From Psammoneis japonica (taxonomy: Eukaryota), in NCBI GenBank assembly GCA_008632985.1, contig QPGO01000076.1, forward strand, positions 248,001 to 312,000: a DNA stretch of 64,000 nucleotides, in the 5' to 3' direction. The notes beneath the pieces are model-generated. The model saw nothing but the letters and a program-made list of their open reading frames with translations. It had not been told where the DNA came from and did not search any database. Each line of letters opens with the position of its first letter. Within the stretch, counting starts at the first letter, position 1. A program made the translations under genes and the position numbers. Below, in pieces: positions 2,543-57,003 of the stretch.

Positions 2543-2581
2543 CACTCCCCCATGATCAGGGCCGTCAAGTGACAGAATGTC

Positions 2582-33286: not shown

Positions 33287-35600
33287 GGTGATGGTGCTTA
33301 CAACAACAAGGACAGCGACAGGTTCAGGTCGTTATGGGTATGAATGATCGATGAGAATGATACAGTTAGAACCGCTTTGGTGCCCCGGTGCGGTATCTGC
33401 TGCCATTTTTTGACATTTGTTCCTTGGAGTGAACCTCACTTTTTGGTCATCCGAAACACGGCATGCAGGAATAGGTCTAGCTAGCTAGCTACAGTAGGTA
33501 GGTAGGTACATACATAGCGCACTTGCCAGATTGCGCCGCGCACCTCGCGCAACGCACATCCATCCCGATGTGTCGAGTGCTGCGCGCTGATTTGACAATT
33601 TGTTGTTGTGATTTATCCAAACAACTTTCTGGTGGTGAACAATGCAGGATTCTACCTTGATGTGACAAAAGGTTTTTTGATGAGATTGTGTGTTTTGCAA
33701 AGTTTTGCATTCTTGAAGCCTGTGCTGCTGCAAGAGTGCTTGCCCGGCTGCAGCTTGCGGGTGTGCTTCCCAGTGGCTGCGATCGAGACCCCATCAAATG
33801 TTGGCTGACATGCTGCACTTTAAAAAAATGTGCAGGTCCCATTTGTGAAAGACATTCCAGCTGTTGCATCTGCTGCATTTGTCCACACTGGCGTGCTCGC
33901 ATCATCCAACTCCCCCCCCCCGACTTGCTGCTGACAAAGGAGAGAGGCAAAAGCCCACTGAGCATGTGCTGGCTCATCTTGGATTCTTGGCAATTGCCGC
34001 TGCATTTTGCCACTTTACACTGACCACCCCAGCGCAGATTCAAGTGCTGGCTGTGGCTTTGAATTGGTTTGCTGTGCTCACTGGCACAAGAGCACCAGCA
34101 ATGGCACCCCTTGTTTTTTTCCAATTTTTGGTGCAGCATCACAAGAGCTGTCTGAGACACACCCCAACAAGACCCTGCATTTTGCACATGTGTGTTGTCA
34201 CCCATGCTCCACCAGAGGTGTAAATTTGCAAACTTCTGGCACAGAGAGCACAACAGCAATCTTTCGTGCTGTAGAGTCATTTGCGCAGAAATGTGCAGAA
34301 CAGTGCCAAGACAATCATTGAAAAGTCTGTCTGTCTGTCCTTGGTGAATTTTAACTTTGCAAAAAACAATGGACTTGACTGTTTTCTGATCAGGTGCATT
34401 TTTCTTCAACACATTTGCAAAAACACACCTGACCCGACAACAGTCAAGTCCATTTTTACACAAATTGTGTGAACATGACAGTTTCAGTGCAAAAACTTGT
34501 AGATTCCACAGGCACCCACAGTTGTTCTGTGCTTTTTACATCGCGGGTCATTTTCAAAAGATTCCCATTGAGAGAGCAGGGCTTCACTCCTTCACTCATT
34601 GGCTGACAAAGAGCTCCAACTGGGCACACCAGCTGCTTTTTTGGATGCTGAGGGAGGGCTCTTGACTCTCACATCATCAGAGGAGCCCACAAAATGTGTT
34701 TCACCCCTCTCTGCTGGCTGCTTTGCATGGTGCACAAAATGCTTTTCCTGCAAGGTTTGAGCGCGGGTTTTGTGTCATTTTGTCTCAACTTGTGCTGGCT
34801 GCAGAGCACACAGCTGTCATCTTTCATGATGATTTGGGGGGGGCAACCATCATGAAAAATGGGGGTGTGCAAATGCAAGAACTGCGTCAGCTGGGCAGCA
34901 CGCAGGTGGAGTGTTGCTGTTTCTGGCTTGGTGCTCCAAAGCTTTGCACAGCTCTCAAAGTTGTCAAGCAGCTTGTGCAAAACTTTCCATTTTGTTTTCA
35001 AGCTGACTTTTCAAAGTTCACAAGAAAATCACACTCACACACATTTGTGGCTCAAATTCAAGAAATTCCTCTGATTGCAGACCCAACCCTGAGCTCTTCT
35101 GGTCATGAAACGGTGCACCCATTTGCTGCAGCTGGGGCTCTGCTGTGAGAAGAGCAAAAAGCAACAAGTTGGCAGTGTGGTGCACTGGCACTGCGGCTGT
35201 CCCACATGGAATGTCGCACAAAAGTGCAGCTGCACACACTGAGCGAGACAAGTGTTTTGTCAGGGTCAACTCATCTTTTGCACTCAAATCGTTGCAGAGT
35301 TGTCGCTGCACTTGGAAATTGTGTGAGCCGAGCTTGCGCTGTTTCTGGCCCAAGCTGTGCCACTGCTGCTGGTTTGCACACTGCTGTTGGGCAAGAAGCC
35401 TGCTAGCTTGTTCTCCCTCTTTTTGGCTTTTTGGCTGCCCTCCTCTGGCAACGCTTGCCAAATTGTCATCGGTCACTTTTGCGACAGTTGGCAGTCTGTC
35501 CGTCAATGGGGCGACGATAATCTACGACCAAGAAGACAAGACTGCCCGCGAGCAAATCGTTTTGGCGAGCGGGGAACACAAAAAGAACCATCAGTTGCCC

Positions 35601-36440
35601 ATGACGAATCGATTTTCGGCTCGCCTTCTCTGTTTCCTTATTCTGTTTGTCATTGAAGCCATTGCCATGGTGGCTTCCGACACTTCCCAGTCAATTCGAG
35701 TAATGACACTAAACGTTGCTCATGGAAGAAAACGTCGCTTTCATCAAACGTTCATATTCACATCGACCATTCGCAGTCATCTGGATGAGATCGCCGAGGT
35801 CATTCAACGAGAAGACCCTGATGTTGCAGCGTTACAAGAAGCAGATGGACCGTGTTGGTGGAGTGGAAGATTTGACCACGTAAAATACATTGCAGACAAG
35901 TGTGGCATGAAGTGTGCGTTTCGGGGTTCACACATGAACTTGTTCCGATTGGACTACGGAACTGCCATCATCTCAAAAGTGCCATTGATCAACAGTGAAT
36001 CAATCCCGTTTCCATCTACATGCCCGTCACCGCCAAAAGGCTTTGTGATTGGCAACGTCAAGTGGAACGGTTTGGATGTTGATGTGGTTTCGGTTCACCT
36101 CGATTTCTTGAGAGCATCAAAGCAGCGAGAGCAAGTTCAAATGATTGCCGACAAGGCACGGCAACGAAAGAGACCAGTGACAATCATGGGTGACTTTAAC
36201 TGTGGGTGGGAAGGGGATGCTTCGCCACTACAAATGCTCTGTGATGATCTCAATTTGAAAGCATTTCGTTCGAAAGAGACAGAAGGATTGGAGAGTTATT
36301 ATATTGCCTCGAAAGGAATGCGTCTCGACTGGATTCTTCTCCCGTTTGAATCACACATGGACTTTTCTGAATGTTCTACAGTGCCAGATGTTCTATCTGA
36401 CCATTTTGCTGTACGCTCAGAAGTGAAGATGTTGAATTGA
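35601..36440 (+). CDS. Endonuclease/exonuclease/phosphatase (EEP) family protein with N-terminal signal/anchor, 279 aa, intronless
   Basis: IRVMTLNV, DVAALQEAD, SVHLD, MGDFN, RLDWIL, SDHFAV. Confidence 0.9.
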   Translation: MTNRFSARLLCFLILFVIEAIAMVASDTSQSIRVMTLNVAHGRKRRFHQTFIFTSTIRSHLDEIAEVIQREDPDVAALQEADGPCWWSGRFDHVKYIADKCGMKCAFRGSHMNLFRLDYGTAIISKVPLINSESIPFPSTCPSPPKGFVIGNVKWNGLDVDVVSVHLDFLRASKQREQVQMIADKARQRKRPVTIMGDFNCGWEGDASPLQMLCDDLNLKAFRSKETEGLESYYIASKGMRLDWILLPFESHMDFSECSTVPDVLSDHFAVRSEVKMLN

Positions 36441-37787
36441 GTGATCAAACGAGGACTCTCGGAAGTTTCCTTTCGTTTGAGTTTCTCTAGGTAAAAAGAA
36501 ACTTTGTGTTACTAAAATAAAGGTCAGCCGAATGTTGATGGAGAAAGGGTTCAAAACTTTTTCTTAAGGTGTAGCGTAACTTTTTACTGCTTCTATCACT
36601 AACAGCTCCTCTAGCTAGAGAGCAGAAGGGCTCGAAGAGGGCCACCCACAATGATGCCGGCCATGAACGAAGAATGAAAGTTTGTCCGCCAGCCAGTGTA
36701 GTTTGGGGTTTGGCCAAAAACATCACACAAACAGCACTGGAACTTTCGCCGATGATGGCGACAACGGAGAGGGCGCTGCGCACACTCTCATCAGAGATGC
36801 AACATGTTGTGTGATTCCTCAATTCACAATGTCACACCCACCAATGCAAGAGAAGATGAGAGTGGCTCGTCGACACATGGGAGAAGCGCCACACAAATGG
36901 TGCCAAAACCACAGTCCAAGACAGCAATGCCTCAATGCTGTCAACATTGAAACTTGACAAAGTCAAGGCACTCATTGACAAATCCAAACTCAACAATGAT
37001 CTGAAGTGTGGCAAAGGAGGATTTCAAGGAACTTGGGCAGCGGTGCTGTCGCTCCAACAGACATGGCGTGACTCACACACCACCACCTTGAAAAGAAAGG
37101 AGAAGATTGAGCTGCACCTGCATGGGAACAAGGGGCCATTGAAGGAGCTCTTGTGGTGCCCCCAACTGCCTTGCCTCTTGGCTGCTCCAGCACGGCACTC
37201 ATGAGTCAGCTGAGGAAAGAAACACGCAGGAGCACCGCCAATGCCACAAAGCATCATGCCACAGGAGACACTGCACAAAATCTTTGACTCCAAGCCCATG
37301 AATGGCAAATGATGGCAGCATCAAAGACAGCAGCACAGCAGAGTGATGGTGGCACCTGACTCTGAGTGCCAACTTCTCTCTGGCATGCTTTGCATGAGGT
37401 GCTGGTGGAGACAGCTTTTGTTCACCAGCCAATCCCCTCTGCGCCGTTCTGGGGGGTTGGCCCTGGCATCTTCTGGCAGTCAGGACATGGCTCAGAGTCA
37501 ACAACTGCCAGGCAACTCAGAGCTGTGGCAGCGGCACCATGCCACACCTTCATTTTAGGAGCACTGGGGGGTGTCATCTTGACCAGCTTTTGAGACCAGC
37601 CCTCAGTTTGAGGAAGCTTTGCCAGCTGGCACACAGCACACCAGTTTTGATCTGGAAGCTTTTGGGGTGCCTGCCAAGGCTGTCTTGCCCCACCTCATTT
37701 TTGCACTGAGGGGCAACAATCTGCACACTTTTTCTCTTCCTTCTGCCCATGCACAGGCTCAGAACTGAGGTCTGCATGCAGCAATTG

Positions 37788-38063
37788 TGACAGGATTTGA
37801 ACAGGATTTAGGTGCGCGCGAAGCATCGCGCGCTGTTTAGTTTACCGTGCACAGTTTTGTGTGCTTTAGTTCCACGCGTTCACGCGCGATGTAGTTTGCT
37901 TTCGAGCCACAAGGCTCACAAGAATAATGACAGTAGCCCGATTATACCGACTCACACGTCTTTCGGCTCCTGTAACGGTCTCTGAGCGGAGACTCATCTG
38001 CTATTTAGACAGCAGTAAGGAGTTATTGTTTGAATTCTTGCCATTTGCCTTCAATTTCTGTCA
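37788..38063 (+). repeat. Copia 5' LTR
   Basis: Differs from 44607-44882 by 14 transitions (hand count). Confidence 0.95.
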
Positions 38064-38989
38064 GATTAACAGTCTTGCTCATTGTCAACCCATTGAGCAA
38101 CCGCCATCGTCGTCGTTGATTTACCAACGACGCTATTTCAATTCTACGTGGACCCCGTATATATCCTACATACATCGGCAAGTCTACGCGCATTCAATAC
38201 CAGGGCATCGGCAGGAAGTTAACGTCACCGTCAAGTCTCCTTACCGCTGGATATCTGGATTGATTATACTACCTTTGATCGCTGAAGACATACATTCAAC
38301 GGTCATATCCAAGTCTATCCTTGATCATCATCCCTTGATATACCTGTTCATCGGTTAACGGTCAAGAACCCTACATATTCAAGGATCTTCGTCGCTGAAG
38401 ACATATATATATATACATGTCTTCACGGCCAAGAACCTGTACCCACTCTTCGGACTGCGGTTTTGCCACCACTCTACAAGCACACCGAGTCCATTGTACC
38501 TGATCTACCCCGGACCACTGGTGCTCTACAGTTCTACTAGGTCCACGAGGACGACTGTGAGAGCAAGCAGCCGTGATTGCAGCCTGCGTTGGGGCGAGGG
38601 TGCTTTCCCGCGTTTGTTCGTTCGTCCACAGCGCCTGATGCCTGCGTCAACTGGCCAGCCTGATCGGGAAATCCAACCGATGTAAAACAAGAATGGTTCG
38701 GGGGTCTTGTCCACCTCTGGTCAGCTTGCCTGCAGGGGTTTGCAACCCGCTGCTCCGCTCGCAAGCAACCCAAAGCGCCGCCAGCTGCGGGCTCGGACGT
38801 GCCGGCACAACTCTACGGACCGGATGGGAAGTTTGGCACTTGACAACGAACGGGATGACAAAGCCCGGCGACTTCTGATTTTAAGACAGTTCAAGATTTC
38901 AAGTCAAGTCTGTTTCAAGTCAAGTCCATTCTCACCCAAGTTTCGAGTCCATCTTCTCTTTGACTGTCCTGACACCACCTTTGTCTGCC

Positions 38990-41900
38990 ATGGTTCTCAC
39001 TCGTCAGCAACAAACCGATGGTTTCGAGCACGTGGTTGGAACCGTGCTTGCCCAAGGTGCTGGGAGTCCTCTTCGTTTGGCTTTGGCCCAAGACGGCACG
39101 GACTCGCATCAGGAACTGTTCACGTTCATGCCGTCCCAAATCGACTCGCTTGAGTGCGACAACGGCGCCAATGCAATCCCTTTGCCCCGTGGTCATGAGA
39201 ACATGTCAGCAGCACTGGTCAGTCTGTGCATTGTCAAAGCACACAAAGGTCTTGACGTTGCCAATGACTCCTCTTTGTTCGCGCATGATGAGTTCCTTGC
39301 CTGCCGCCTCAGCCCCGACTGCATGTCTTCTGTGTCCATCGGCAGCTCACCCCTTGCACCTCCACATGTCACCAACCCGACCAAGGCACGCGACCCGGTG
39401 CGGGACTTCAAGCGAGGCATCAAGCATGATCCCACCGCTTTCACGGCTCTCAAATCCGACAAGCAGTGGCACACTTGGCACACCTCACTTGTGGCACAAG
39501 CCCGTGCCCAAGACGTCGAGTGCATTCTAGACTCGTCGTACAAACCGACCAGCCCCGAAGACAAACTGCTCTTTGCTGAACAGCAAAAGTGCATGTTCGC
39601 CGTCTTCGAACGCATCCTTCTCACCGACAAGGGCAAGGCTCTCATTCGCGAAAATGTGGGGTCTTCTGACGCACAGACCGTCTGCCGCTCCTTGTCTGAG
39701 TGCGCGCTTGCCTCCACCCGCGCATCTGTCGAGTCCTCCACCCTGCTCACGCACCTCACCACCGCGCGTCTTGGTGATGGCACTTGGAAAGGTCCGACCC
39801 ACGGGTTCATCCTTCATTGGCAAGATCAGTTGCGCAAGTGCGAGGCACTCATCCCGGCCAGTGACCACTTCTCTGAAGGACAGAAGCGCATCATGCTCGA
39901 GAATGCCGTGCACCCTGTCGAGGAACTCCGTGCTGTCAAGAACCAAGCTGATCAGCATCGCACGCAGAGTGGCAAGAGCCTCACATGCGATCAACACTGT
40001 GGCTTGCTCCTCTCCGCCGCAGCTCAGCACGACAGCACATTTCAACCCAAGACGACACCTCGAGCTCCCCGACGCGCCACACACGCACATGACGTCTGCT
40101 CCGAGGAACCGTCCGACGATGTGTTCTACGACATTGACAGCGACGTTGACATCCTTCAAGCCAATGCTGCCTGCACCCGCGGTCCCAGCCTCACCGGTGT
40201 CCAATGGAGACGTCTCCCTCCCGACCACCAACGGCTCTGGAATTCGTTGCCCGATTCCTCCAAGGCGATCATCCTTGGGCATTCTCGTCCACCTCCCCGC
40301 AACCCGCGAGCCAGCAACTGCCATGAGTCTGTTACGGCCAACCTTCATGACCAACGCCTTGGGAGTGACGGTGATGTCAACTTGTCCAACACGACTCCTG
40401 CTGACTCTGGTGACTCCGCTCCACATGTGGACGCCACTTCGGACAATCCCATCCTGGCGCACCTCACCAAGCGCAAGCCACTGCCACCCGGTGATCTGCA
40501 ACGTCTGTTGTCTCCTAACCAAGCCCCCAATGCCAGTCGACCGGGGCCATCCGCCGCTTCCTCTATCCCGCCAGCTTCTGCAGATGACATGGAACTCAAC
40601 GGTCGCACTTGCCGCCGCGTTGACAACCACAATGTCATTTGCTCTGCTTCTGCTCATCGCTCCACACGCACTGGCACTCTAGTCGATCGTGGGGCCAACG
40701 GCGGCATTGCTGGCGATGACGTTCGCGTCATTGCACGCACCTCTCGCCAAGTCGACGTTCAGGGCATTGACGATCATCAATTGGTGGACATCCCCGTTGT
40801 CACCGCTGGTGCCGTCATTGAGACCCAGCGTGGTCCCGTCATCGCCACACTCCATCAGTGCGCATGCACGGGCAAGGGCAAGACCATCCATTCCTGCGAC
40901 CAGCTTGAATGGTGCAAACAGGATGTCAACGATCGCTCTGTCAAGGTGCCCAACGGCTTGCAACGCATTGCCACTCCTGATGGCTGTGTCATCCCCATTG
41001 ACATCAAGGCTGGCCTGCCTCATGTTGCCATGCGACCTCACACTGACGCCGAATGGGACACCCTGCCCCATGTCATCCTCACCGGTGATGACACATGGGA
41101 CCCTTCCGTCCTCGATCACTCTGTCACTGACGACGACCAGTGGTGCGACGCGATCTCTGACCTGCAGGACGATCCCACTGCCAACCCATTTGACGAACAC
41201 GGCAACTACCGTCATCGTGTCGTTGTCAACGAGACCATCATGTCCGCTTCCTTGTCTGCCGATCACGCGTCCGCCCTCGATGATCACCTCATTCCGAACG
41301 ACGACGTGTTCTACGAGTGTCATCTGCATGCGATTGGCCCCCAGGGCGATGATGTTCCACCTCCGGAGCGCACTGCACAGCCCAAGGACCCCCCCTTCGA
41401 GTCTCTTCGGCCTCACTTTGGCTTCCTACCTGCCGATGCGGTCCGTCGCACTTTTGACTGCACCGCGCAGTGCGCCCGCATGCCCGCCGGTGCACACCTT
41501 CGCAAGGCCTGCAAATCACCCAACCCCGCCCTTAATGTGCACCGCCGCAATGAGCCCATCGCCACTGACACCGTTCATGCCGACACCCCGGCCATCGACT
41601 CTGGTTGCACCAGCGCCCAACTGTTTGTTGGCACCGAGTCTACCGTCACTGACGTCTGCGGCACTGAGACGGACAAAGAGTTTGTCAACACACTCGAGGA
41701 TCAGATCCGTGTGCGTGGTGCCCCATCCAAACTCATTGGCGACCGTGCTCAAGTTGAGATCAGCAACAAAGTGCTCGGGATCCTACGCACCCTCTTCATC
41801 TCTAGCTGGCAAAGTGAGCCTCACCAGCAACACCAAAACTTTGCCGAGCGTCGACACCAGACCGTGAAGCGCATGGCAAACACTGTCATGGATCGTTTTG

Positions 41901-44659
41901 GTTCGCCCGCCCACACATGGCTGCTGGCGCTCATGTGCGTGTGCTTCATGCTCAACCACACAGCGTCCCCACGTCTCCACTGGCGCACGCCCCTTGAGAC
42001 TCTCACTGGCTCCACCCCGGACATCAGCCCATTGCTTCGCTTTCACTGGTGGGAACCCGTGCACTTCCACCTCGATGACTCCGATTGGCCGTCCGAATCC
42101 CGTGAGTTGCGTGGACGCTTCGTTGGCATTGCTGAGCACGTCAGCCACCAGATGACCTTCAAGATTCTATCTGACGAGAATCAGAAGATCCTCTGCCGGT
42201 CCAACGTCCGCTCCGCTACCCCCGATCCTGCCGTCTGAAACCTGCGTCTTGATCCTCCTGATGGGGAGCCACCTGAACCCATCATCAAATCTCGCCATGA
42301 CGACAACCCCGTCGACTCTCCTGATGGGGAGATCAGGACACCCAAGATGCCAGTTTTCGATCCGCAAGACATCATTGGACGCACCTTCCTCATGCAGCCA
42401 CAAGAGGACGGACAACGCCACAGAGCTCGCATCGTCAAGGCCGTCGAAGACCACGAATGGAAAGTGAACGGCAATCCCGAGCTCACTAAGTTCGTCTGCT
42501 CTGTCAACAATGACGAATACGAGGAAGTCCTTGCCAGCAATGACATCATGAATCACATTGAGCAAGAAGACGAAGACACCACTGTTTGGAAATTTTGACG
42601 CATCGTGTCACACGAAGGACCTCTGAAGCCTCACGACCCAACCTGGAAAGGCTCCAGCTACAACATCATGCTTGAATGGGAAAGTGGGGAGATCACGTCC
42701 GAGCCTCTTGCCATCATCGCCAAGGATGACCCCATCACCTGTGCCATCTGTGCACGAGAGAACAGACTCCTCGACACGGATGGCTGGAAGCGGTTCCGCA
42801 CCATCGCGAGGCGCCAAAAGAAGCTGTTTCGCATGGCCAACCAAGCCAAGCTTCGCTCCTTCCGCACTGCACCTCGCTGCAAGTGTGGATGCGAAGTTCC
42901 CCGGAACTGCAAACACGCCATGTCACTAGACGAACGCAACGGCAACCGCAAGTGGGGAGACGCAACTAATCTCGAGATGGACCAACTCGACGAATACGAA
43001 GTCTTCCATGACTGCGGGCCCTTCAAGTCTTCCACTCCTCCTGCGGGACACAAGAAGATCCGAGTGCACCTGGTGTGCGACGTGAAACACGACGGTCGCC
43101 ACAAGGCACGACTCGTAGCCAACGGGCACCTCACGGACACACCCATCGACAGTGTCTACTCCGGAGCAGTCTCCCTCCGTGGCCTTCGGCTGATGATTTT
43201 CCTGGCCGAACTCAACGAGTTGGAGACATGGGCCACCGACATTGGCAATGCCTGCCTTGAAGCCACCACCAAGGAGAAGCTTTACATTGTAGCTGGACCC
43301 GAGTTCGGCAAACTCGAAGGACACATCCTTGTCATCCACAAGGCACTGCATGGACTGCGCAGCTCCGGTCTCCGCTGGCACGAGCGCTTCGCTGACTGCC
43401 TGCGAGCTGAAGGCTTCTTCCCCTGCCGCGCCGAACCCGACATTTGGATGCGCAGGAACGGCGACCACTGTGAATGCATTGCCGTTTATGTGGATGACCT
43501 CGCCATTGCCATGAAGGACCCTCAATCTTTCGTCGACACCCTCACGGAAAAGCACAAGTTCAAGCTCAAGGGTGCGGGACCCATTGAGTTCCATCTGGGT
43601 TGCGACTTTTCCCGGGAACCCGACGGAACCTTGTGCCTGTCTCCGCGCAAGTACATCGAGCGCATGGTCGACAGCCATGCCCGACTGTTTGGGGAGAAAC
43701 CCACCACCAACGCCCTGTCACCTCTAGAGAAGGGTGACCACCCCGAACTGGACACTTCCGAACTGCTGGGACCCGATGGCATCCACAAGTTCCAGTCTCT
43801 TGTTGGTTCACTCCAATGGGCAGTGTCCCTTGGTCGAATTGACATCACCACGGCCGTCATGTCACTCTCTAGCTTCCGAGCTGCGCCCCGTCAAGGCCAC
43901 TTGGATCGTGCCAAGCGCGTCTGTGGGTGCCTCTCCAAGATGCGACACGGTGCTCTCCGCGTTCGCACGGAAGAGCCCGACTGTTCGGATCTCCCTGCTC
44001 CGGCCTGTGAATGGATGCATTCCGTGTATGGTGAAGCAGAAGAGATGATCCCGAAGGACGCTCCACCGCCCCTTGGCAAGTTCGTCACTGCCACCCACTA
44101 CGTCGATGCAAACTTGCACCATTGCATGCTCACCGGACGCTCTGTCATGGGAATGCTCCACTTCCTCAACAAATTCCCGGCTGATTGGTTCTCTAAGAAA
44201 CAAGCCACCGTGGAGACTGCGACCTGCGGGTCTGAATTTGTTGCTGCAAGGACTTGTGTTGAGCAGATTGTCGACCTGCGCATCACCCTGCGCTGCCTTG
44301 GCGTCCCGATCCGTAACGTTAGTTACATGTTCGGTGACAACAAGTCGGTTGTAGACAGTGCCACCATCCCGCACTCCAAGTTACACAAGCGACACACCGC
44401 ACTGTCGTTCCACCGTGTGCGTGAGGCAATTGCCTCTGGTTGCCTTGAGTTCCACTTCATCGAAGGCTCCCGCAACCCTGCTGACATTCTCAGCAAGCAT
44501 TGGGGTTGCTCCCAAATCTGGGACCTTCTCCGCCCCCTCATGTTCTGGAACTTCATTCCATCCGAAGTCGAATCTGTTTCTGTGGCTCCTCAAGCAAACT
44601 GGGGAGTGACAGGATTTGAACAGGATTTGGGTGCGCGCGAAGCATCGCGCGCTGTTTAG
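38990..44659 (+). pseudogene. Copia gag-pol polyprotein (protease, integrase, RT, RNase H) in one frame with two TGA stops (42236, 42596)
   Basis: LVDRGANGG (protease). ATDTVHADTPA, GDRAQVE, QNFAERR (integrase). HKARLVA, TDIGNACL, LHGLRSSG, YVDD (RT). YVDAN, SEFVAA, GDNKS, NPADILSK (RNase H). ORFs 38960, 42347 and 42605 share a frame. Confidence 0.93.
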
Positions 44660-44882
44660 TTTACCGTGCACAGTTTTGTGTGCTTTAGTTCCGCGCGTTC
44701 ACGTGCGATGTAGTTTGCTTTCGAGCCACAAGGCTCACAAGAATGACAACAGCAGCCCGATTGTGCCGACTCACACGTCTTTTGGCTCCTGCAACGGTCT
44801 CTGAGCGGAGACTCATCTGCCATTTAGACAGCAGCAAGGAGTCATTGTTTGAATTCTTGCCATTTGCCTTCAATTTCTGTCA
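44607..44882 (+). repeat. Copia 3' LTR
   Basis: Direct repeat of 37788-38063, preceded by the PPT. Confidence 0.95.
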
Positions 44883-45099
44883 AATTGCATCACTTGCAGA
44901 CCTGCAGTTGTCGAAACAGCAGCACATTTGCTCATTTGAAGCAAAAAATGAAGTGCTCAGCAACCTCACACGTGCTTTCATCACAAAAAAATTCAAGCCA
45001 TTTGTCTTTGCAAACTAATTTGCAACTCATGAATTTTGCGTTTCAGCAGTCAGAGAGTGCTTGTAGAAGTGGAAAGCAGCTCACATTGTTGTGTTGTCA

Positions 45100-46280
45100 T
45101 GTGCAGACCATGTCATCTTTTGAGGAACAAACAATGCTGGCAATTGTGTCCAAACTGACATCAACCCCATCCACACTTGGATCTGCCTTCATTGTGCACA
45201 ATGTGCTCAGAAGTCCCAAGGAAAAGCGACTCAGGGTGAGCCAGCTTCTTGTCTTGCCATTGATCATTGGTGACATCATGTTCAGGTTTTCTGTCATTTC
45301 TTGGGCACATGGCCCATGCTGGAATCTTTGTCTCATTTCATTTTGGGTGCAAGTGGGGCCACAGGATTGTGCACAGCACAGAGGTTCTTTCTTCTTTTTG
45401 CTTGGCCTGCTGTGTTTGTGACAAATGCATGCCTCAGTGTCAGCTGTGTTCTTGTCATTGGACACAAGGGGTCAGATGAAAAGCTGAAGAAAAGGGTGTT
45501 TCCATGGTTTTTGCTCTCCACAGCTTTTGTGAGCTTTGGTGTGGGGCGTTCACAGCTTTGGCCAAAGACCTCCTCAATCCACCCCCCTTGTTTTGCTTTG
45601 TCAAACCATGTCCATTGGGATGTGAGGGTGATGCATGCAAGCAAGGTGCAGATGCCAATCTTCATCAATGGCTTCCAGCTCTTGGTCCTCTCTGGACTTG
45701 CTTTGCAATCTTGATTGCAGATTGCAGCAATGGTGGTTGTGCGTGTCAATGTCTCTGGTGTTGCTGAGAGGAGACCAAAAGGAGAGCACCCCATTGAAAC
45801 CCCTCAAGGTGGCTCTGCCTGCAGGGCCAGCAGCCACAGAGTGTGCTGTCAAGTTCAACCTCTGGCAGAGCTGGAGAATTGGTGTCCAGTGCATCAGCTG
45901 TTGCTGCAGTGCTGATGATGGATGATTCAGATGAAGGACAGCACACCTGCAGAAATGACAGATCACACCACTGCTGGATCAAAACAAGCTGGCTGGATCC
46001 AGAGGATGAGCACAAGGCAGCAGCTGTCATCACTTTCAACTGGCGGCAGTCCAAAGTCTGCAGAAAATCAAGATTCTCTCAATCTCACACCAGATTGACC
46101 ACTGCCAAGCACATTTGTTCACACACCAGCCTTCACAGCCACCTGGCTGTTTCCAATGGTTGGGCGAGCTGTGCAAGAAAATTTGCATCAGCTCTTGGTC
46201 TGCATTGCCATCTTTGCCCCACTCCAAGGATTCTTCAATGCTCTTGTTTGTGTGTGTCCAAGGTGCACTCAGAATCAATG
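45100..46280 (+). pseudogene. Decayed 7TM GPCR-like host gene (diatom type)
   Basis: Frameshifted fragments: SKLTSTPSTLGSAFIVHNVLRSPK, FLGTWPM, GASGATGLCTAQRFF, NACLSVSCVLVI, LLNPPPLFCFVKPCPLGC, IFAPLQGFFNALVCV (cf. PLQGFFNALVY in TM7). Confidence 0.75.
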
Positions 46281-46827
46281 GAAGCATCCACAGATGTCTT
46301 GTTTCCATGCAGCTGTCACCATGGATGATGAGGTTGCCCATGAAATCAAAAACAGAGGCAGAGCTCAGCAGGGTGTTCAGGGTGACATGAGCACGATCAC
46401 TGACAGCTAAAAAAACAGAATGAACACTTCCAGAAAGAAGTGCAAAGGTGTGTCAAACAGAGAGCAGGCTTTGGTCTGTGAGAGTGCAGACAACCACACC
46501 AGGTGTTGTGACTGTGCTGTGTTGTGCAGGCACAGCATGCATCAGAAGCACAATGACAACCGTCAAGCCAATGCTTTGGAAAGAAAAAGGCCAATGAAGT
46601 CATCACCAAATTGTGAGCATGAACTTGAAATGAGGACAATGACAATGAGTTGCAATTGCTGGAAACAAAACTCACCGGTCCATTGATGTCAACGTGTGAA
46701 AAGCGAGGGTTTGTGCCCCTGCATTGTGAATTGTGTGGCACAACAAAGCTCTGCAAGATGAGTGCCGCCAGAGAGAGAGAGAGTGGCTCTCTGCCACTGC
46801 CAGCTGTGACCACTTCTAATCCAGTGG

Positions 46828-46830
<3 letters not shown>

Positions 46831-46864
<34 letters not shown>
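46831..46864. repeat. (AG)n microsatellite
   Basis: About 17 AG units at the edge of a TpA-depleted block. Confidence 0.9.
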
Positions 46865-46866
<2 letters not shown>

Positions 46867-48112
46867 AAGACCATGGTTGCACCTGCGGCACCAGCAAAAC
46901 GTGTACAATCCCTGCTGCTCTAGCTAGAGCGAGAGCACCGGTGGGCCCTCTCTACTGGCTACTAGAGCAGCTCTCTAGCTAGCTAGCAGCAGTAGCTGCC
47001 GGTACAGCAGTAGAGCAAAACAAGCTGCACTCGCAACCGGGCGGAAGGACGGACTGCACCGCAGTCGCGAGATACAGTAGATGTACAAACGACAAACGAT
47101 GGAAAAGCAATAAAAGCTGCAGCATACATAGCGCTGAAATTTTGAGGTGTACCCAGTATATGATACAAAATACAGTGCCAATCAGATAGAAGAGGTGACA
47201 AAGCAAATTTTGGACTGGTTTGTGCGTAGCCTTATCACCAATCACTGTACACGTATCGCACGGTAGGTGCAAAGACGAAAAAGCAAAACAGTCGAGCAGA
47301 TATCTTCGAAATGAGGCGCTCTCCGTGCGCCTCTTTGTCGTTTTCCCTCCTTGCCCTTGTTTTTCGTGAGAGTCGTGTGGGACAACGGCTTTAGCAAGCT
47401 GCTGCGGTATGACCCATAGCGAATGCCGCCAGAAAAAGTGTCAATAAACTTAATACGTCGAGTCCTTTTCATGACATTCGTATTCACTACACAGACCGTC
47501 ATCGATTTCCTCGAGAACTGCAACATCCAACATGACAAGTTGTCAGTCTGCGGAAGCAGGCCATCAGAAAACGAAAGATGGATGGAGAATCATCGCAACG
47601 TGTCACGGATGAGGATATTTTGGCAGAAACCTGTGGCTTGACTGCTCATTCGTATGAACTCTACAAGCAATCGCAATCATACAAACATTCCAAACGATGT
47701 GGCGGACATGAGCTCGTTGGTCTCAGATTTTTTTGACGGACTGCCCTATTGATAGCTCGAGTCCGGATACACCAAGGGATGGGGAAGCAGCAGCTGGACT
47801 CGTGTCAGTGGACCAATTGTTTTAGCTGTGAATTTGCGCATGCGCTGGGCTTCTTTTGTTGATTTTTTGGTGAATATTATCGCCATGAGCTGGACGAGAC
47901 TTGGTGGAATCTGCCCGTTTGGCGTGGTATGCTCTGCCCAACGCGGGTGGTCCCGACTACATGCCTCTGTTTCTCATCCGCCCCCAATCCAAGACAGTGG
48001 AAGTCTTTGGTTTCGCCGTTGCTGAAGAAACGAACTGATGCTCTCAACGCCCTAATGCGTTTTTCTTTGCCGTATAGCTAATGCATACATGCAGAAGTTG
48101 ACTTATTTATGT

Positions 48113-51100
48113 CTAAGGATTGGGCCGATTCCATTTGCACCACAGAAGCATGGAAAGGAAGAGGGTAATTCCTATGCCCGAGAAGATGGAATAAAGGTAA
48201 ATAATAAAGCTGAGATAGGGCTGAGGGTGGTCCCAGTTCAATCCGACAATGAGTGCCGTAATGGTCAAGTAGATTGACATTGGCACCACGCGCCAAAGCC
48301 AACGCGCAATCCAGTCTCTGGAGGTGTCCCTTTCGGCGTCATGGCCTTTGGCTCCCCAGGAAGTATCGTGGTAGTTTGCCAGGGGACGGATCGCCACCGA
48401 TACACAGAAGGGGATGCAGCAAATGATAAAGGCGGGCAGACACAGAAGAGCCTTCCAAAACTTCCGGGGAAACATTATGAGGGGATAGATAAGGGCAAGG
48501 AATGGAAGAGTACCAATCACAACCCACACAAGCCAGTCTGGGTCGTATAAGTCCTCCGCTGTTGACGTAGGGGCGCTCAGCCACAAGAAGGTCACGCCCA
48601 CTTGGGTCAGGCAATGTGCGGTGAAGACGGTGTAATACAGAGGCTTTTGCTTTTCTGGATCTCTGCAGAAAATTGCAAGCAGCACGTAGCCAGCAAGTAT
48701 GGCAAAATGGATCCATTTCCAGGATTTGGCTAGTCCAAGAGTCCAAGGTGAAGGCGGCAAAATCGTCTCATCCGAGTCACTAGCACCAATGACACGCTCT
48801 GCCAAAACGCAATGGACCAGAATGAATGTCCCGTAGAGCATGACACTGTATACGGTCCAGTAAGTCATCAACCAAACGAGGTGAACGAGTATCGCTAAAC
48901 GTCGTAGGAGAGTCTTGCCATTGGAAGATCTGAAGAAAAGCTGCCTCGAGCGTCGGACCTGCCAAAATAAGACACTCAAACCGCCATTGAACCAACGCTT
49001 GCGCTGCTTGACCAAGGCCGTGTATTCAGTCGGTGCGTCGAAATCGGCAACGATATCGGGGTACCAGCGAACTACGCCGGTACGGGCCATTTCACCACCC
49101 AAGAATGTGTCTTCGGCCATGTACACGTTAGCCCAAAACACGCCTAGCTCGTGGTCCCTGGAGTACGAGTAGATCTCTAGTGGACTGATGTCATTTTCCG
49201 GGCGCCACACCTGTTCCTTGCTGATCGAAGGCTTCTGCGTCGAGATATTGCGCGGAAGCAAACTTTCCTCGGATGAAAGTTCTAAAGTCTGAGAGGTTGA
49301 AACAGAGCTAAGGTCCGTGCCGTGATCTTCCCTCTTACACGCGCGTAACCACTTGTTTCGAGTGAGTAGCTGTTTCCCGCACAATGCTGACCAGCGAAAA
49401 GCTGCGGAAGGCCCCGATGTTGGGTGCAAAATCCCCATGATTGAGTTGAAAACAAAGTTTACCGGTATGTTAAGGTACTCAGTGTACTGCATTTGCTGGA
49501 TAGGATTCCACCACTGGTCCAGCCGAGCCACGATGTTGCTGCAGCATACCACCACGTCTTCATCGCGTGCGAGGCTATGGTATTGGTTGAACAACGCATC
49601 ATTCACCGGGAAAGTGCCAACATCTAAGATGGTTATTTGAAAGGGCTGAATTGCATTGCCAAGACCGTTGAAGAGCCAATCATGGGAGCTCAGCTTGCCG
49701 CCGTTCTTAACCTTGGCTAGAAGGATTACGGCCATCGTTGCTTCGACATCTTGTACGCTACCATGAAAGGTGCCACGGAAGAGATGAACCGTCGGTTCGA
49801 ATTCATCAACTGTCGATTCTGGGATAGGCAACCAAAGACCTATATCTTCAAGCATCTGCCTCGTGCCTTCGTTTACTTTTTCGATTCCATCCAACATGAT
49901 GACGGTCGCAATCTGTTTGTCGTACTTGTCGTTCCTGTCAAAGCGAGGTGATGTCCTGATGATTGATTCCAGTGTGCACTGCAGGAAGTCCGGTTCCTCA
50001 TTGTACATGGCAATACCAAAGAGGACACAGTCCTCCAGACCCATGATGTTGTGGTAGCTGGCGAACTCATACGGCTGGCAATAGACTTTTGTGTAGGTCG
50101 TGTCCGTGACAAGCAGCTTGAGAGTTGGGTCGACCGGACAAAAAATGATTTGGTCCGGAGTACCGATCTTCTGCATTGCGCATGTATCTCCAAGAGTGGA
50201 ATTGGTTTCTTCAGACAGAGCACACGACACTACACTGTCGTGGGAAGGATCATTAGATTCAACGTCAACAAATCCTTTTTGAGGATTCCCCTTTTGCTCC
50301 AATTGACGAGCCATAGCCAACAACGTGGCCAAGAAGGCCTTCTGGCTTTGCTCAGCTTTCTGATGTTTGTGAGACATCATACTTGAAGGAAGCGGCTCCG
50401 CCCAGTTAGGAACACCTGTGTCTACCGGAAGTGGAGTCTCGGCGTCTTGTAGATAGGATACGTTTCCGGGAGGTGATGGGGGGTGCCGACATATTTTTTG
50501 AGCATCTATCCTATGCCGGTGCGACTGTGCACAACTAGGAACCCCTGTGTGTGCTACATGCGGAGTCTCGGAAGCCTGTAGATGGGATACTTTCCCTGGC
50601 GGTGAGGGACGCCGCCGGCTTATTTGCGCATCTGTGTGGTATTGATGCGACTGCACCCAGCTAGGACCGCCTGTGTGCACTGTATTCGCAGTATCGGCAA
50701 TCTGTAGAAAGGAGACGTTCCCTGGTGGTGAGGGGGGGCGGCTTGTCTGCGAAGCTTTCTGAGATTTATTCGAAGTGCGTGACTGCGTCCGGCTATTGGG
50801 AACTCGTATGCAGGAGATGTTCCCCGGTGGGGTCCTTTCACCACGGTCATCGTTCTGGGCTTGATGCTGGAGGAGCATCTCTGAAGGGCGCAATTGCGCG
50901 GGGCTGGGAACGTCGGTGTTTAGTGAATGCGCCACTTTTTGTCGATGGGAGACGTCCCAGGAAGATGAGCTAAAACTGAGCAATGAGTTTCTGCTGAGAG
51001 AGAACTCTGACCTCCAAGAGTCATGCGATAGAGCGTCCGCAAGGCGGCCGATCATGCTCCTGTAGAAGCTTGAAGAACTTGCGCCATCTTGTTCTGTGTC

Positions 51101-51724
51101 TCCGGCGCCCACATCGGGGGTCGTGCTTGCTGCTCGATGGGAGAAGCGCCGCGATGCACCAACGCTGAGCAATGATCGACTGCTGATTAAACCCCGTGGC
51201 TTCCCCGAGTCTTGTGACAGAAAGTTCAAAAGCCACATGGCTGTGTTTTCACGGAAACTTGATTTTGTACCTTCTCGTTCTGTTGGCCATTGGATTTGCT
51301 CCAAAGAGGCCGACACTGCACCGGTCGTAAACTGTTTGGAAGGTAGTGACGCGCCACGTCTTTCTTCTGATTTCTTGCTGGGCTTGCAATCAACGACTTT
51401 CGGCTGGAACTTTGATCTGCTTGACTCCTGGTTTGTGTCGCATGTTACATGATGATCGTTGCTAATGCTGATGGCACCATTCGAGGGTAAATCAGCGTCC
51501 ATAACTTCAGAGACAAACGTCGAGGATGTCGACGAGCCTTGAGGAGAATCTGTTTTAAGGCGCTCTTTCGTCGCAGTGCTTTCTTCCGCTTCACTCCCAT
51601 CCACAAGATCATAGTCTCCTATAAAGAATCTCTTGAAGACTTTGCCTCCCATGAATGGATGACACTGGTGCAGCCTGATGATACCTGCACCCCCTGACGA
51701 GGAAACTTCTTGCTGGCAGTTCAT
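48113..51724 (-). CDS. CHS: Chitin synthase (GT2, Chitin_synth_1-like), 1203 aa, long disordered N-terminus, C-terminal TM helices
   Basis: AMYNE, KVKNGGKLSSHDW, LDVGT, QYTEY, MAEDTFL, QRKRWFNG, HDTSWGAKG. Uninterrupted ORF with normal Tyr usage. Confidence 0.88.
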   Translation of the reverse strand: MNCQQEVSSSGGAGIIRLHQCHPFMGGKVFKRFFIGDYDLVDGSEAEESTATKERLKTDSPQGSSTSSTFVSEVMDADLPSNGAISISNDHHVTCDTNQESSRSKFQPKVVDCKPSKKSEERRGASLPSKQFTTGAVSASLEQIQWPTEREGTKSSFRENTAMWLLNFLSQDSGKPRGLISSRSLLSVGASRRFSHRAASTTPDVGAGDTEQDGASSSSFYRSMIGRLADALSHDSWRSEFSLSRNSLLSFSSSSWDVSHRQKVAHSLNTDVPSPAQLRPSEMLLQHQAQNDDRGERTPPGNISCIRVPNSRTQSRTSNKSQKASQTSRPPSPPGNVSFLQIADTANTVHTGGPSWVQSHQYHTDAQISRRRPSPPGKVSHLQASETPHVAHTGVPSCAQSHRHRIDAQKICRHPPSPPGNVSYLQDAETPLPVDTGVPNWAEPLPSSMMSHKHQKAEQSQKAFLATLLAMARQLEQKGNPQKGFVDVESNDPSHDSVVSCALSEETNSTLGDTCAMQKIGTPDQIIFCPVDPTLKLLVTDTTYTKVYCQPYEFASYHNIMGLEDCVLFGIAMYNEEPDFLQCTLESIIRTSPRFDRNDKYDKQIATVIMLDGIEKVNEGTRQMLEDIGLWLPIPESTVDEFEPTVHLFRGTFHGSVQDVEATMAVILLAKVKNGGKLSSHDWLFNGLGNAIQPFQITILDVGTFPVNDALFNQYHSLARDEDVVVCCSNIVARLDQWWNPIQQMQYTEYLNIPVNFVFNSIMGILHPTSGPSAAFRWSALCGKQLLTRNKWLRACKREDHGTDLSSVSTSQTLELSSEESLLPRNISTQKPSISKEQVWRPENDISPLEIYSYSRDHELGVFWANVYMAEDTFLGGEMARTGVVRWYPDIVADFDAPTEYTALVKQRKRWFNGGLSVLFWQVRRSRQLFFRSSNGKTLLRRLAILVHLVWLMTYWTVYSVMLYGTFILVHCVLAERVIGASDSDETILPPSPWTLGLAKSWKWIHFAILAGYVLLAIFCRDPEKQKPLYYTVFTAHCLTQVGVTFLWLSAPTSTAEDLYDPDWLVWVVIGTLPFLALIYPLIMFPRKFWKALLCLPAFIICCIPFCVSVAIRPLANYHDTSWGAKGHDAERDTSRDWIARWLWRVVPMSIYLTITALIVGLNWDHPQPYLSFIIYLYSIFSGIGITLFLSMLLWCKWNRPNP
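50400..50835 (-). repeat. Intragenic tandem peptide repeat (about 42-43 aa, 3-4 copies) in the chitin synthase N-terminus
   Basis: SPPGNVSFLQIADT..VHTGGPSWVQSH / SPPGKVSHLQASET..AHTGVPSCAQSH / SPPGNVSYLQDAET..VDTGVPNW. Confidence 0.85.
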
Positions 51725-53617
51725 GTGACTGAAGCCACGATTCGATGCTCAGACCAAAATGAAGAGATGTAGCGTTTTCCTTATTCAAACTTTTTGCCAG
51801 CTGCGGTCTGTCAAGAATCACTTTAGTAAACACAGGAACGACTGAAGGGCACGTTGTTTCAACTCGATGTCAAGCGAGGGAGGGGAGATCGAGAACGCGA
51901 TGGTGCGTGATATGATTTTTTGTGAGGGCGGTGTTGCTTTGGCCCATGAGAGGATCAGACAAATTAGTGACCCACCAAAGTCATTCATAAATGACCTGGT
52001 CATTTTGATTTAACAGAGGAACCCTTGCTAGAGAAAGATCATTAAATGCTGTTTCCGTTCATCAGGCATCGCAGACATTTTGTTGCCGTCGGTCGTCCTG
52101 AATTTCGTGACCCGAACACAATTCGCCCACATCTCTCGCTGCACCACCAAAGAATTGCTGCAGCTTAATTTCTGCACGGGAATTCTAGCATGGATCTGAC
52201 AATCGAAGTAGTTGTCAAACAAGTTGAGCATGGCTTGGACAGTTGCCATGCAAATTTGTGTCATTGTTTTGGAGCAGCATCAGCAGACAAGGAGCAAGGC
52301 TGCTTCTCCTCAAAGTTTTTCACGTTTGCTGTTGTGCTGGATGTGCCAACGGCACTGCCTTCAACAGGCAGATGCATTCTCGTGTCATCCGTTGATTGAT
52401 TCTTTCCAATCATGTGCTGCGCAGCTCATGGTGGGGGCTGCCCTGCCCTGTTTTGACAAAAGTTGTGTTGGCAGCAAAGGCTCCAACAACAAGAAGCCAC
52501 CCGCACTCTTTGCACTTTGAAGGCTGCCACTGAGCTGGGAGGGGGGGTGTCAGAGGATCTTGCCAAGCAAAAAAAACAGAGGTGCAGCAAAGAAGGTGCA
52601 GTGGGAGACTTGGGGCACAAACCCAAACCCAGCATTGTGGCGCAGCTCACCAGGTGAGCAGGGCTGTCTCAAAAACAAAGAGCGACCAAGTTGACAGACA
52701 GCTCTGCTGCAAAGATCTTTTCAAGATCAGCATCTTTGCAAGTGTGTGGGAGAAACTCTGCCAAGCTCTTCTGTGGCTTTTTGCTTCAAACAACAGCCAT
52801 GCCACGGATCTCTTTGAGCTTGTTTTGCAAGAGCACACCACTTGCTTGTCCCAAATGATGGGCAACTCCGCGGTGCTTTCTCTGTTTGCCAATCATGGCT
52901 TCATTGCACAGCAAGCTGGCCATGAGCAAGCTGGGCAAGCCTTGCTCTGGTGACATTCTTCCACAATCCTCCAGAGCATCCACTTGCCACCTTGAGCCAG
53001 GGTCGTGCCCTGCTGGTGCATCGCCACATGGCGGCATCTCTTCTGTGCCCAAAGGAGTGTGCAGCAGTCAGCCACCCAACCAGGCATCCAAAAAGTCTTC
53101 CAAGGACAGTGCCTTTCCTTGCACAAATCATGAGAGGTGGCCATTGTGCACTCCAAGAAGCAAAGGTGGCAAGAGAGCCAAAGAAGTCCATTTGCGTGCA
53201 GGCCTTCACAGTCAGATGTTGTTGCCCAAGTGCAGCTGCGGTGGCGTGGATCAAAGCCATGTCAAGCGCGACGACGGACAACGGTAGACGTCAAACTGAA
53301 AATCTCGCCATGCTCGTTGGGAGACACTCTAGCTAGATAAACATGTGGAGAAGCCCGCATCGTGTATGGTGCAAAGCAAAGCGCCGGCTATCGACTCCAG
53401 TCACAGTGGGGAGCTCACAAAAGAAGGAACAATTTGCATCGACGGATGCGAACACCTTTGTGAGTAGCGCACAGCCTTTTCATAGCGTTTTCAATAAATG
53501 CATCAATATAGGGAATTATAGACAGTATGAAAGATTGGTGAATCGGCCCGCTCTCACTTCTCAGTTCATCCAACAATAAATATGCGAATGCAAAGCTTGC
53601 AGTGGACTTTCTTCCCG

Positions 53618-56743: not shown

Positions 56744-57003
56744 GGCCTGTTCCAGCTCCAGGTGCTCCGCACGGGTTCGATTCCCATCATTTGGAAATTT
56801 GTGCATTCAGCGCAATTAACTTTTTCCAAATCCGTTTTTTGCCAAATCGAAGGGCAAGCGCACACTTTGCATGCATTTTCGGGTGTGCACTCACCTTTCG
56901 ATTTTCGAAACGATCAAAATTGAAGGAGCCAATTGCGCTGAACTGCGCAGAAAATCGGCCTCTCGTGTGATGAAAAGCAGAGCACCTGGAGCTGGAACAG
57001 GCC
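56744..57003. mobile_element. Putative 260-bp MITE with perfect 24-bp TIRs and 4-bp TSD TGCC
   Basis: GGCCTGTTCCAGCTCCAGGTGCTC at 56744-56767 and its reverse complement at 56980-57003. TGCC at 56740-56743 and 57004-57007. Confidence 0.75.

Follow-up and report, generated by a model that had tools for sequence, protein, structure and literature searches.

The long terminal repeats of a Copia retrotransposon point to TpA to TpG/CpA hypermutation in the chromosome after insertion

Introduction

Hypermutation of TpA to TpG or CpA has been described for integrated viral DNA of the alga Bigelowiella natans by Mettrop et al. (10.64898/2026.01.13.699255), a preprint whose main text is the source of what is said here about that organism. 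In two viral regions 230 of 231 de novo mutations were A to G or T to C, all of these at TpA, and the rate in the viral regions was about 1000 times the background. The genome contained 124 TpA-depleted clusters in about 95 Mb, reverse transcriptase (RT) and DDE domains were enriched in the TpA-depleted genes, and the main targets, a 186-kb giant-virus insert and a virophage insert, still retained TpA at 3.3% and 9.2%. Deamination of adenine was advanced in that preprint as a hypothesis, with an ADAT2-like candidate; the terms LTR (long terminal repeat), retrotransposon, TTAA and CpG are absent from its main text (10.64898/2026.01.13.699255). Here we analyse a complete LTR retrotransposon of the Ty1/Copia type at positions 37788-44882 (plus strand) of a 64-kb stretch of DNA from Psammoneis japonica (contig QPGO01000076.1, positions 248,001 to 312,000), called the window below, in which positions are counted from its first nucleotide. 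This element was very likely hit after its integration by a chromosomal process that turns TpA into TpG or CpA, from position 38540 through its 3' LTR, and the same process very likely acts on other transposons and on relic DNA. We take the host to be other than B. natans and probably a diatom. Its genes run in long single frames, unlike those of B. natans, and a protein search with its beta-propeller protein returned as first cluster one of mostly Bacillariophyta (score 0.95), which is a lead only; the same search with its chitin synthase was uninformative.

As in B. natans, the changes at this locus are almost only A to G or T to C, lie at TpA on either strand, and are confined to kilobase-scale foreign or mobile regions while the rest of the genome mutates normally. 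Both cases show clusters depleted in TpA and enriched in CpA and TpG, with RT domains among the targets. Unlike B. natans, about 24 of 64 kb stand here at 0.4% TpA, which is far more saturated, and the targets are LTR retrotransposons and unrecognisable relic DNA, with an accompanying loss of CpG and a tetranucleotide preference. Mutation was measured in real time in B. natans, whereas here it is seen only indirectly in the sequence, in the form of TA/CA differences between assembly and reads and of LTRs with no ordinary substitutions. In literature searches on diatoms and on this signature, the B. natans preprint was the only precedent found, and none was found in diatoms; the available part of a paper on diatom transposons (PMC2806351) makes no mention of hypermutation or dinucleotides. 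What is new against the precedent is the LTR-pair evidence for action in place, the tetranucleotide rule, the saturation and the independence from duplication.

Results

The LTR pair of the Copia element

The repeat search gave one direct-repeat family for the element (37787-38067 and 44606-44886), which, when trimmed to TG...CA ends, leaves two LTRs of 276 bp each with the termini TGACAG...CTGTCA (Table 1). The 5-bp target-site duplication (TSD) AATTG is intact at both outer edges, the left flank ending ...GCAGCAATTG directly before the LTR. The second open reading frame (ORF2) matched RVT_2 (PF07727) with E = 6e-26, and the C-terminal part of ORF1, about 320 residues, showed 49% identity to the part upstream of RT in a relative (protein P0011). 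The Copia gene order, with an integrase-like region in ORF1 followed by RT in ORF2, was thereby supported. The Pfam rve domain was detected neither in the element nor in P0011, and the integrase label is a putative one, given from position and known motifs.

During reverse transcription both LTRs are copied from one template, so that they are identical at integration. The original prediction, made from the letters of the window, had described a 276-bp LTR pair with intact TSD that differed by 14 transitions: nine in which the 5' LTR has TA and the 3' LTR has TG or CA, one site with TG against CA, and three of the CA/CG or CG/TG kind. The repeat search and alignment bore out the pair and its TSD, and position-by-position comparison returned the same 14 differences, with no gaps and no transversions. 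TA in the 5' LTR stood against TG at four sites (37810, 37926, 37944 and 37946) and against CA at five (37934, 37973, 38002, 38016 and 38024); the TG/CA site proved to be one adjacent pair (37928-37929, TG in the 5' LTR and CA in the 3' LTR); and the remaining three were CA against CG at 37874 and CG against TG at 37885 and 37964 (5' against 3' LTR). On the reading preferred here, the LTR pair records the spectrum of the process: the 3' LTR underwent nine changes of TA to TG/CA, a single dinucleotide was mutated in each of the two LTRs, and apart from three CpG transitions nothing else occurred. The TA that survive in the 3' LTR lie in TTAG (three), TTAC and GTAG. The two LTRs have diverged by 5.1% and, outside the TA-type and CpG-type sites, show no difference at all. 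The predicted distortion of LTR-divergence dating was borne out by this last result.

As control spectrum we used a 2006-bp gene duplicate in the same window. Its copies differed at 71 positions, of which 43 were transitions and 28 transversions, and its 11 TA-type differences were split 6:5 by direction. Compared with this control, at least nine TA-type differences among the 14 in the Copia LTRs had a binomial P of 5e-5, and the ratio of transitions to transversions in the Copia and Gypsy LTR pairs (36:0, against 43:28 in the control) gave a Fisher P of 1e-6. The 9:0 direction of the Copia TA-type differences had P = 0.004.

The element falls into two tracts, of which the first (37788-38539) was spared and the second (38540-44882) converted. 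Its TA positions number 52 between 37809 and 38538 and only 46 in the remaining 6.3 kb; the dinucleotide statistic rho for TA drops to 0.15 in the interior (38961-44606) and 0.30 in the 3' LTR, as compared with 0.75 for both the 5' LTR and the leader. For CG, rho stays at about 0.9-1.25 along the whole element (0.90 in the same interior). The interior has lost most of its TA but not its CG, and the TA process is therefore faster than the loss of CG. The spared leader retains an intact (TA)6 microsatellite some 125 bp upstream of the start of the converted tract.

A Gypsy element with the opposite LTR spared

A Gypsy-type LTR element lies on the minus strand of the same window, with RNase H and integrase ORFs at 4352-2582 (minus strand). 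Its LTRs differed by 22 substitutions, all of them transitions. The left LTR had TA where the right had TG or CA at 12 sites (6 each), and the opposite was seen once; the others comprised three adjacent TG-against-CA pairs (6 positions), two CpG-type differences and one T/C difference at 2257. TA-type differences thus make up 9 of 14 in the Copia and 13 of 22 in the Gypsy LTRs, to which the TG/CA pairs add 2 and 6 positions, respectively. TA was kept at about 5000-6900 of the Gypsy element and depleted elsewhere, apart from the mostly unconverted 3' LTR. Since the LTR that is spared is the 5' one in Copia and the 3' one in Gypsy, the asymmetry is unrelated to the replication cycle.

The spared Gypsy tract at 5000-6900 is unusually TA-rich (39-45 TA per 500 bp, GC 0.41-0.47), and 19 stops interrupt one reading frame across 4400-6979. 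Within each of the two elements, AT content is highest in the spared tracts.

Direction of the change

To polarise the change we used a protein and a codon outgroup. The RT protein (P0002) was aligned with 57 homologues, and a column was taken as conserved Tyr when at least 70% carried Tyr. At the 25 such columns of the RT ORF, the element kept Tyr in 9 and had Cys in 11, His in 2, Phe in 2 and Trp in 1, Tyr to Cys being by far the commonest replacement. Replacement of Tyr by Cys or His was also visible in the integrase-like region of ORF1 when aligned with P0011. The codon alignment comprised 15 of 22 examined metagenome relatives, those without a stop in the matched frame, and a dinucleotide was considered conserved when present in at least 80% of them. 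Eight of the 23 conserved TA were kept, nine had become TG, five CA and one TT, so that 14 of 15 changes led to TG or CA; conversely, none of 59 conserved CA/TG had become TA in the element (Fisher P = 4e-10). Conserved CG were kept at 17 of 18 sites in the Copia ORF, and dinucleotides other than TA were kept at 66-100% (AT 66%, AA 77%, TT 83%), against 35% for TA.

Reads from other copies of the family were compared at the 40 listed of 379 variable places, only two of them within the LTR. Where the window copy has CA, these copies mostly had TA at 39194 (80%), 39207 (93%), 39174 (53%) and LTR position 37953 (75%), the percentages being shares of summed depth. The outgroups indicate that the change runs from TA to TG/CA, and not as in repeat-induced point mutation (RIP). 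An ancestral TG/CA, which the original prediction had named as the mark of RIP, was found at none of the places that could be polarised: conserved Tyr were lost, and conserved TA changed to TG/CA with no change in reverse. The frames of 1092 and 684 amino acids (aa) stay open, although 16 of 25 conserved Tyr are lost, because TA to TG/CA cannot create a stop codon. Open frames are here uninformative on activity or age.

TA-free domains of the window

A profile of the whole window in 500-bp steps showed kilobase-scale domains with 0-4 TA and 2-10 CG per 500 bp, alternating with gene-bearing domains with 12-33 TA and 20-37 CG. About 24 kb of the 64-kb window, lying between genes and mostly single-copy, is nearly stripped of TA. 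We pooled 24.1 kb of TA-free domains and compared them with 26.7 kb of gene domains. The frequency of TA was 0.41% against 3.60% and that of CG 1.61% against 5.45%, whereas CA and TG together amounted to 22.1% against 15.2%; the sum of TA, CG, CA and TG was 24.10% in the TA-free and 24.20% in the gene domains, with a GC content of 0.488 in both. TA-free DNA is what gene-type DNA becomes when transitions turn TA and CG into CA/TG. In the pooled TA-free domains, rho was 0.06 for TA, 0.27 for CG, 1.75 for CA and 1.79 for TG.

Within the window the TA-free domains are mutually dissimilar and are not repeats of each other. A tblastn search of them with the Copia and Gypsy proteins found only one relic, a degenerate Copia pol. 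Among 38 long ORFs of these domains, chosen from 73 of at least 110 aa, 37 had no Pfam match, and the origin of most of the TA-free DNA is not recognisable from the Pfam and tblastn scans. Both flanks of the Copia element are TA-free and CG-poor, so the element inserted into DNA that was already converted.

An arylamine N-acetyltransferase relic (PF00797, E = 8e-8, profile positions 3-71 of 240) in one of the TA-free domains looks like a decayed and converted non-transposon gene. Another such domain holds a repeat of an unassigned family at 33667-35000, as judged from a summed read depth of 740-2200 where the surroundings have about 55, and a 345-aa ORF at 33501-34535 (minus strand) without Pfam match.

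Read-derived contigs

Reads were available from four runs (X1-X4), one of which (X1) contained 93% of the sampled words from 44000-53999. Contigs assembled from 31-mers of the reads covered the TA-free flanks of the Copia element at a depth of about 50-55, against 57 for neighbouring genes. Contig record 3 (37205-37786) had a depth of 49.9 and 2 differences from the window, record 6 (45016-46822) a depth of 52.5, and record 2 (34544-37203) 9 differences; record 8 (47199-52999, 6055 bp), which spans the TA-free 52001-52999, differed from the window once. The summed read depth of the Copia family was 65,000-173,000, against about 55 in the flanks, although this sum is not a copy number.

On either side of the Copia element, 16 differences between reads and window were listed. 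At four of them the reads have TA where the window has CA (33170, 36152, 36157 and 36181); the remaining 12 comprised one CA-against-TG pair (2 positions), 5 CpG-type and 5 other differences. Three of the four form a polymorphic conversion cluster, where the window has CA and a single-copy read contig has TA. The original prediction had placed the change in the chromosome after integration and not in reverse transcription, and this was corroborated by the Gypsy element with the opposite LTR spared, the TA-free single-copy flanks and the cluster at 36152-36181.

The cluster consists of three T/C differences within 30 bp on the same strand. It lies inside an Exo_endo_phos ORF (35211-36440), possibly an endonuclease of the long interspersed nuclear element (LINE) type, and the stretch 36152-36181 had a depth of 265 in run X2, against 19 for neighbouring genes.

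Independence from duplication

The control duplicate is a segment of a beta-propeller gene, with its two copies 96.5% identical. Conversion is not repeat-triggered: it has affected single-copy DNA, and the spectrum of this 2-kb duplicate is ordinary. Neighbouring genes likewise have a normal spectrum, conversion being confined to discrete regions. The duplicated beta-propeller genes (PF09826) lie about 8.5 kb apart, and homology between them falls to about 80% at 53200-53432 and 61789-61997 and is gone where TA-free DNA starts. Left of 53200 the alignments of the duplicate are unreliable, as mafft placed 188 gap columns and a local alignment in purine/pyrimidine code gave 104 blocks at 50% identity.

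Target context

The bases flanking TA were counted at the 177 residual sites in 33.8 kb of converted DNA and at 1158 sites in 29.4 kb of unconverted DNA. TTAA occurred 44 times in converted and 50 times in unconverted DNA, and CTAG 19 against 46 times, as compared with 1 against 96 for ATAT, 1 against 82 for GTAT, 3 against 80 for GTAC and 3 against 96 for ATAC. RTAY (R, purine; Y, pyrimidine) made up 8 of 177 residual sites against 354 of 1158 in unconverted DNA. The retention of TTAA and the depletion of RTAY each had a Fisher P of about 1e-16. Corrected for length, the retention of TA ranged from about 0.76 (TTAA) down to about 0.01 (ATAT), and by flanking base it rose from A through G and C to T. 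RTAY sites are converted preferentially, whereas those in TTAA are almost immune. Both strands were affected, in a ratio of 4:5 in the Copia LTRs and 9:5 in the codon analysis.

Metagenome relatives

Most metagenome relatives of the element had a TA rho of 0.5-1.0, and three of 50 relative loci were strongly TA-depleted (L036, rho 0.13; L030, 0.27; L016, 0.31). Polarised conversion in these three affected 13 of 16, 15 of 18 and 10 of 21 conserved TA, against 1 of 21 in each of two unconverted relatives that served as controls. Among the metagenome loci of at least 5.5 kb, seven had terminal repeats, five of which were 100% identical overlaps, and none carried the TA signature.

In the closest metagenome relative (L001, 75% aa identity) the terminal repeats at 3-416 and 7495-7908 differ by 14 transitions and no transversions. 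These differences are mostly T in the left against C in the right repeat, in TC, TT and TA contexts. This context-free pattern possibly reflects another editing process or an assembly mix of variants.

Genes of the window

A chitin synthase (PF01644) of 1203 aa is encoded at 48113-51724 (minus strand) in a single open frame. The other genes of the gene domains (EF-hand, ThrE/EF-hand and RING) likewise have long frames without obvious introns.

Table 1. Positions of the Copia element, its surroundings and the other features of the 64-kb window
Feature	Position	Strand	Basis and remarks
TA-free domain	1-2000		500-bp profile
Gypsy-type LTR element	2109-7915	-	LTRs 2109-2544 (its 3' LTR, mostly unconverted) and 7481-7915 (its 5' LTR, converted)
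TA-free, CG-poor domain	8001-14000		500-bp profile; 32 TA and 136 CG in 6 kb
TA-free, CG-poor domain with two relics	20001-25500		500-bp profile
Arylamine N-acetyltransferase relic	20134-20712	+	Pfam
Degenerate Copia pol relic in TA-free domain	22929-23832	+	tblastn
TA-free domain	33501-35500		500-bp profile
Polymorphic conversion cluster	36152-36181	+	Read contigs; CA in window, TA in reads at 36152, 36157, 36181
Copia upstream flank, TA-free, CG-poor	36901-37787		Profile, read contigs; 1 TA and 9 CG, single-copy read depth
Left TSD AATTG	37783-37787		Directly before the LTR
5' LTR, unconverted copy	37788-38063	+	Repeat search, alignment, position-by-position comparison; 14 TA, TA rho 0.75
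Unconverted tract (5' LTR and leader)	37788-38539	+	TA position list; 52 TA including the (TA)6 run 38404-38415
Converted tract	38540-44882	+	TA position list, 46 TA in 6.3 kb; direction indicated by protein and codon outgroups
ORF1, 1092 aa	38960-42238	+	No Pfam match; residues 771-1089 integrase-like (alignment with P0011)
ORF2, 684 aa, RVT_2 reverse transcriptase and RNase H region	42605-44659	+	Pfam, homologue alignment
Purine run GGGGAG abutting the 3' LTR	44601-44606	+	Putative polypurine tract, from position
3' LTR, converted copy	44607-44882	+	LTR alignment, TA list; 5 TA, TA rho 0.30
Right TSD AATTG	44883-44887		Position-by-position comparison
Copia downstream flank, TA-free, CG-poor	44883-46600		Profile, read contigs; 3 TA and 10 CG, single-copy read depth
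TA-free domain	52001-53000		500-bp profile
Control: duplicated beta-propeller gene segment	53493-55498	-	Repeat search, alignment; partner 61993-63998
TA-free, CG-poor domain	56501-61500		500-bp profile; 17 TA and 54 CG in 5 kb

Discussion

The spectrum, the direction, the tract structure, the tetranucleotide preference and the independence from LTR polarity and from duplication are what was observed, and we consider it very likely that they arose by TpA mutation in the chromosome after the Copia element had integrated. In the course of events that we propose, a Ty1/Copia element would have inserted into DNA already stripped of TA, and a chromosomal process would then have turned TpA into TpG or CpA by A:T to G:C transitions, which may fall on either strand. 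It would have left untouched the 5' LTR and some 480 bp of leader, up to and including 38539. Tracts of about 0.4 to 6 kb in transposons and relic intergenic DNA would be converted in this manner and neighbouring genes spared, with a slower loss of CpG accompanying that of TpA. The chemistry could be enzymatic deamination of adenine in DNA to hypoxanthine, which pairs with C. Its targeting may follow silent, methylated chromatin, as suggested by the loss of CpG in the same domains, and its role may be defence against mobile or foreign DNA, by analogy with B. natans.

Several results weigh against this reading, and others are taken up below with the rivals. At the nine LTR sites the direction is inferred from the continuity of the converted tract and not from other LTR copies, since the 3' LTR adjoins the converted interior and the 5' LTR belongs to the unconverted tract; an exact-pattern scan of the metagenome contigs for a 26-nt LTR motif gave 0 matches. 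One relative (L044, rho 0.53) had changed none of 9 conserved TA to TG/CA. In a runs test of how TG and CA follow one another, z was -2.1 to +0.5 in the TA-free domains, which gives no support for long same-strand runs such as would be expected of a processive single-strand deaminase. Gene domains were similar (-1.7 to +0.7), the two converted transposon interiors had z of +1.8 and +2.5, and the apparent same-strand runs inside the two LTR pairs are too few to count. All four runs, X1-X4, come from a single sample; the assembly itself may have been made from these reads, and their independence is thus incomplete. The loss of CpG may be part of the same process or ordinary decay of 5-methylcytosine (5mC). 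Like such decay, CG to TG/CA is seen here in silent DNA, where it accounts for 3 of 14 Copia and 2 of 22 Gypsy differences and for a CG rho of 0.27 in the old domains; unlike it, the young Copia interior has a CG rho of 0.90 while TA stands at 0.15, and 5mC decay leaves the loss of TA unexplained.

The switch near 38539, from 52 TA in 750 bp to 46 TA in 6.3 kb, is sharp. It could mean that the element was formerly converted throughout by the same TpA hypermutation, either in place or as the offspring of a converted progenitor, and that its 5' LTR and leader were overwritten afterwards by ectopic gene conversion from an unconverted copy. Gene conversion from a pristine copy would yield the same LTR pattern; the family is very abundant by summed depth and would thus offer many donors, and transcription could continue from a converted element, whose frames stay open. 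Such a tract, however, would need to stop exactly at the outer edge of the element with the TSD kept, and in the Gypsy element two separate unconverted patches, the 3' LTR and 5000-6900, would have to be accounted for. Activity in place at this locus is, moreover, evident from the TA-free single-copy flanks. We regard overwriting as unlikely. RIP-like C to T mutation at CpA/TpG would make TG/CA the ancestral state and place the mutations in the 5' LTR and leader; it draws on the symmetry of the raw LTR comparison when that is taken alone. In Neurospora-type fungi RIP yields TA against TG/CA differences. Like RIP, the process seen here is a dinucleotide-specific, transition-only, regionally saturating, chromosomal mutation of mobile DNA that inflates LTR divergence and inactivates elements. 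Unlike RIP, which changes C to T at CpA and so creates TpA and stops, it destroys TpA by A:T to G:C change without new stops, and in place of a trigger by duplication we find a linked 2-kb duplicate without RIP-type mutation and single-copy domains in which TA was lost and not gained. At a TA rho of 0.75, the 5' LTR and leader fall within the 0.5-1.0 of most relatives and are not enriched in TA. Together with the replacement of conserved Tyr by Cys or His and the 14 of 23 conserved TA changed to TG/CA, against 0 of 59 conserved CA/TG changed to TA, this leaves RIP hardly tenable.

A further rival is editing before integration, by ADAR-like A-to-I change of the element RNA or by a deaminase on the complementary DNA (cDNA) as with APOBEC3 on retroviruses. 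Like the process seen here, ADAR and APOBEC3 leave deaminase-type clusters of transitions in retroelements, and ADAR shares the A to G change and the 5' U/T preference. In favour of this rival, a preference of ADAR for U 5' of the edited A is noted in the main text of the B. natans preprint (10.64898/2026.01.13.699255). The excess of Tyr to Cys, a sense-strand A to G change, over Tyr to His in the RT ORF (11:2) points the same way. These enzymes, though, act strand-specifically on RNA or pre-integration cDNA and leave LTRs alike or polarised by replication, and RNA editing cannot make LTRs differ because both are copied from the same minus-strand DNA. Here both strands were hit, in the 4:5 and 9:5 ratios given above, the polarity of the LTRs was irrelevant with the opposite one spared in Gypsy, and the same change affected non-transposon chromosomal DNA in the single-copy flanks and the polymorphic site cluster, which makes editing before integration very improbable. 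Much the same holds for an artefact in which modified bases of silent chromatin, such as 5mC or N6-methyladenine (6mA), were systematically misread as T or G and the absence of TA and CG is only apparent. A near-complete loss of both CG and TA with exact mass balance is what a miscall per motif would give, and the records of the runs give no library type. Against it, the TA-free sequence recurs nearly letter for letter in read contigs at gene-like depth (about 50-57), implying accurate reads; at some sites the reads have TA where the assembly has CA; independent metagenome assemblies carry similarly converted relatives; and the same signature appears among de novo mutations called with Illumina reads in another alga (10.64898/2026.01.13.699255). 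We give a miscall very little credence. TpA mutation in the chromosome after integration remains the explanation that we prefer.

These results bear on how diatom transposons are dated and annotated. In its available part, 10.1101/2025.10.24.684338 dates diatom LTR insertions with one constant rate. Dating with one rate would be badly wrong here, where 5.1% divergence has accumulated without an ordinary substitution. Converted elements keep long frames and are therefore prone to mis-annotation as intact genes. The locus adds a second and far more saturated case, in a probably unrelated lineage. Its thousands of converted sites allow the target rules (RTAY over YTAR), the sizes of tracts and the correlates in chromatin to be worked out, and the deaminase could be sought in this genome. 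Base editing at present relies on evolved TadA, and a natural DNA adenine deaminase, if this is what is at work, would be of interest to it. We tentatively suggest that this alga, probably a diatom, may possess a chromatin-targeted enzyme system that deaminates the adenine of TpA, prefers RTAY, spares TTAA and needs no duplication. Such a system would erase TA from new retrotransposons faster than one ordinary LTR substitution accrues and would have remodelled roughly a third of the intergenic DNA. Taken with the chlorarachniophyte case, it might point to a natural defence by DNA adenine deaminase across distant protist lineages.

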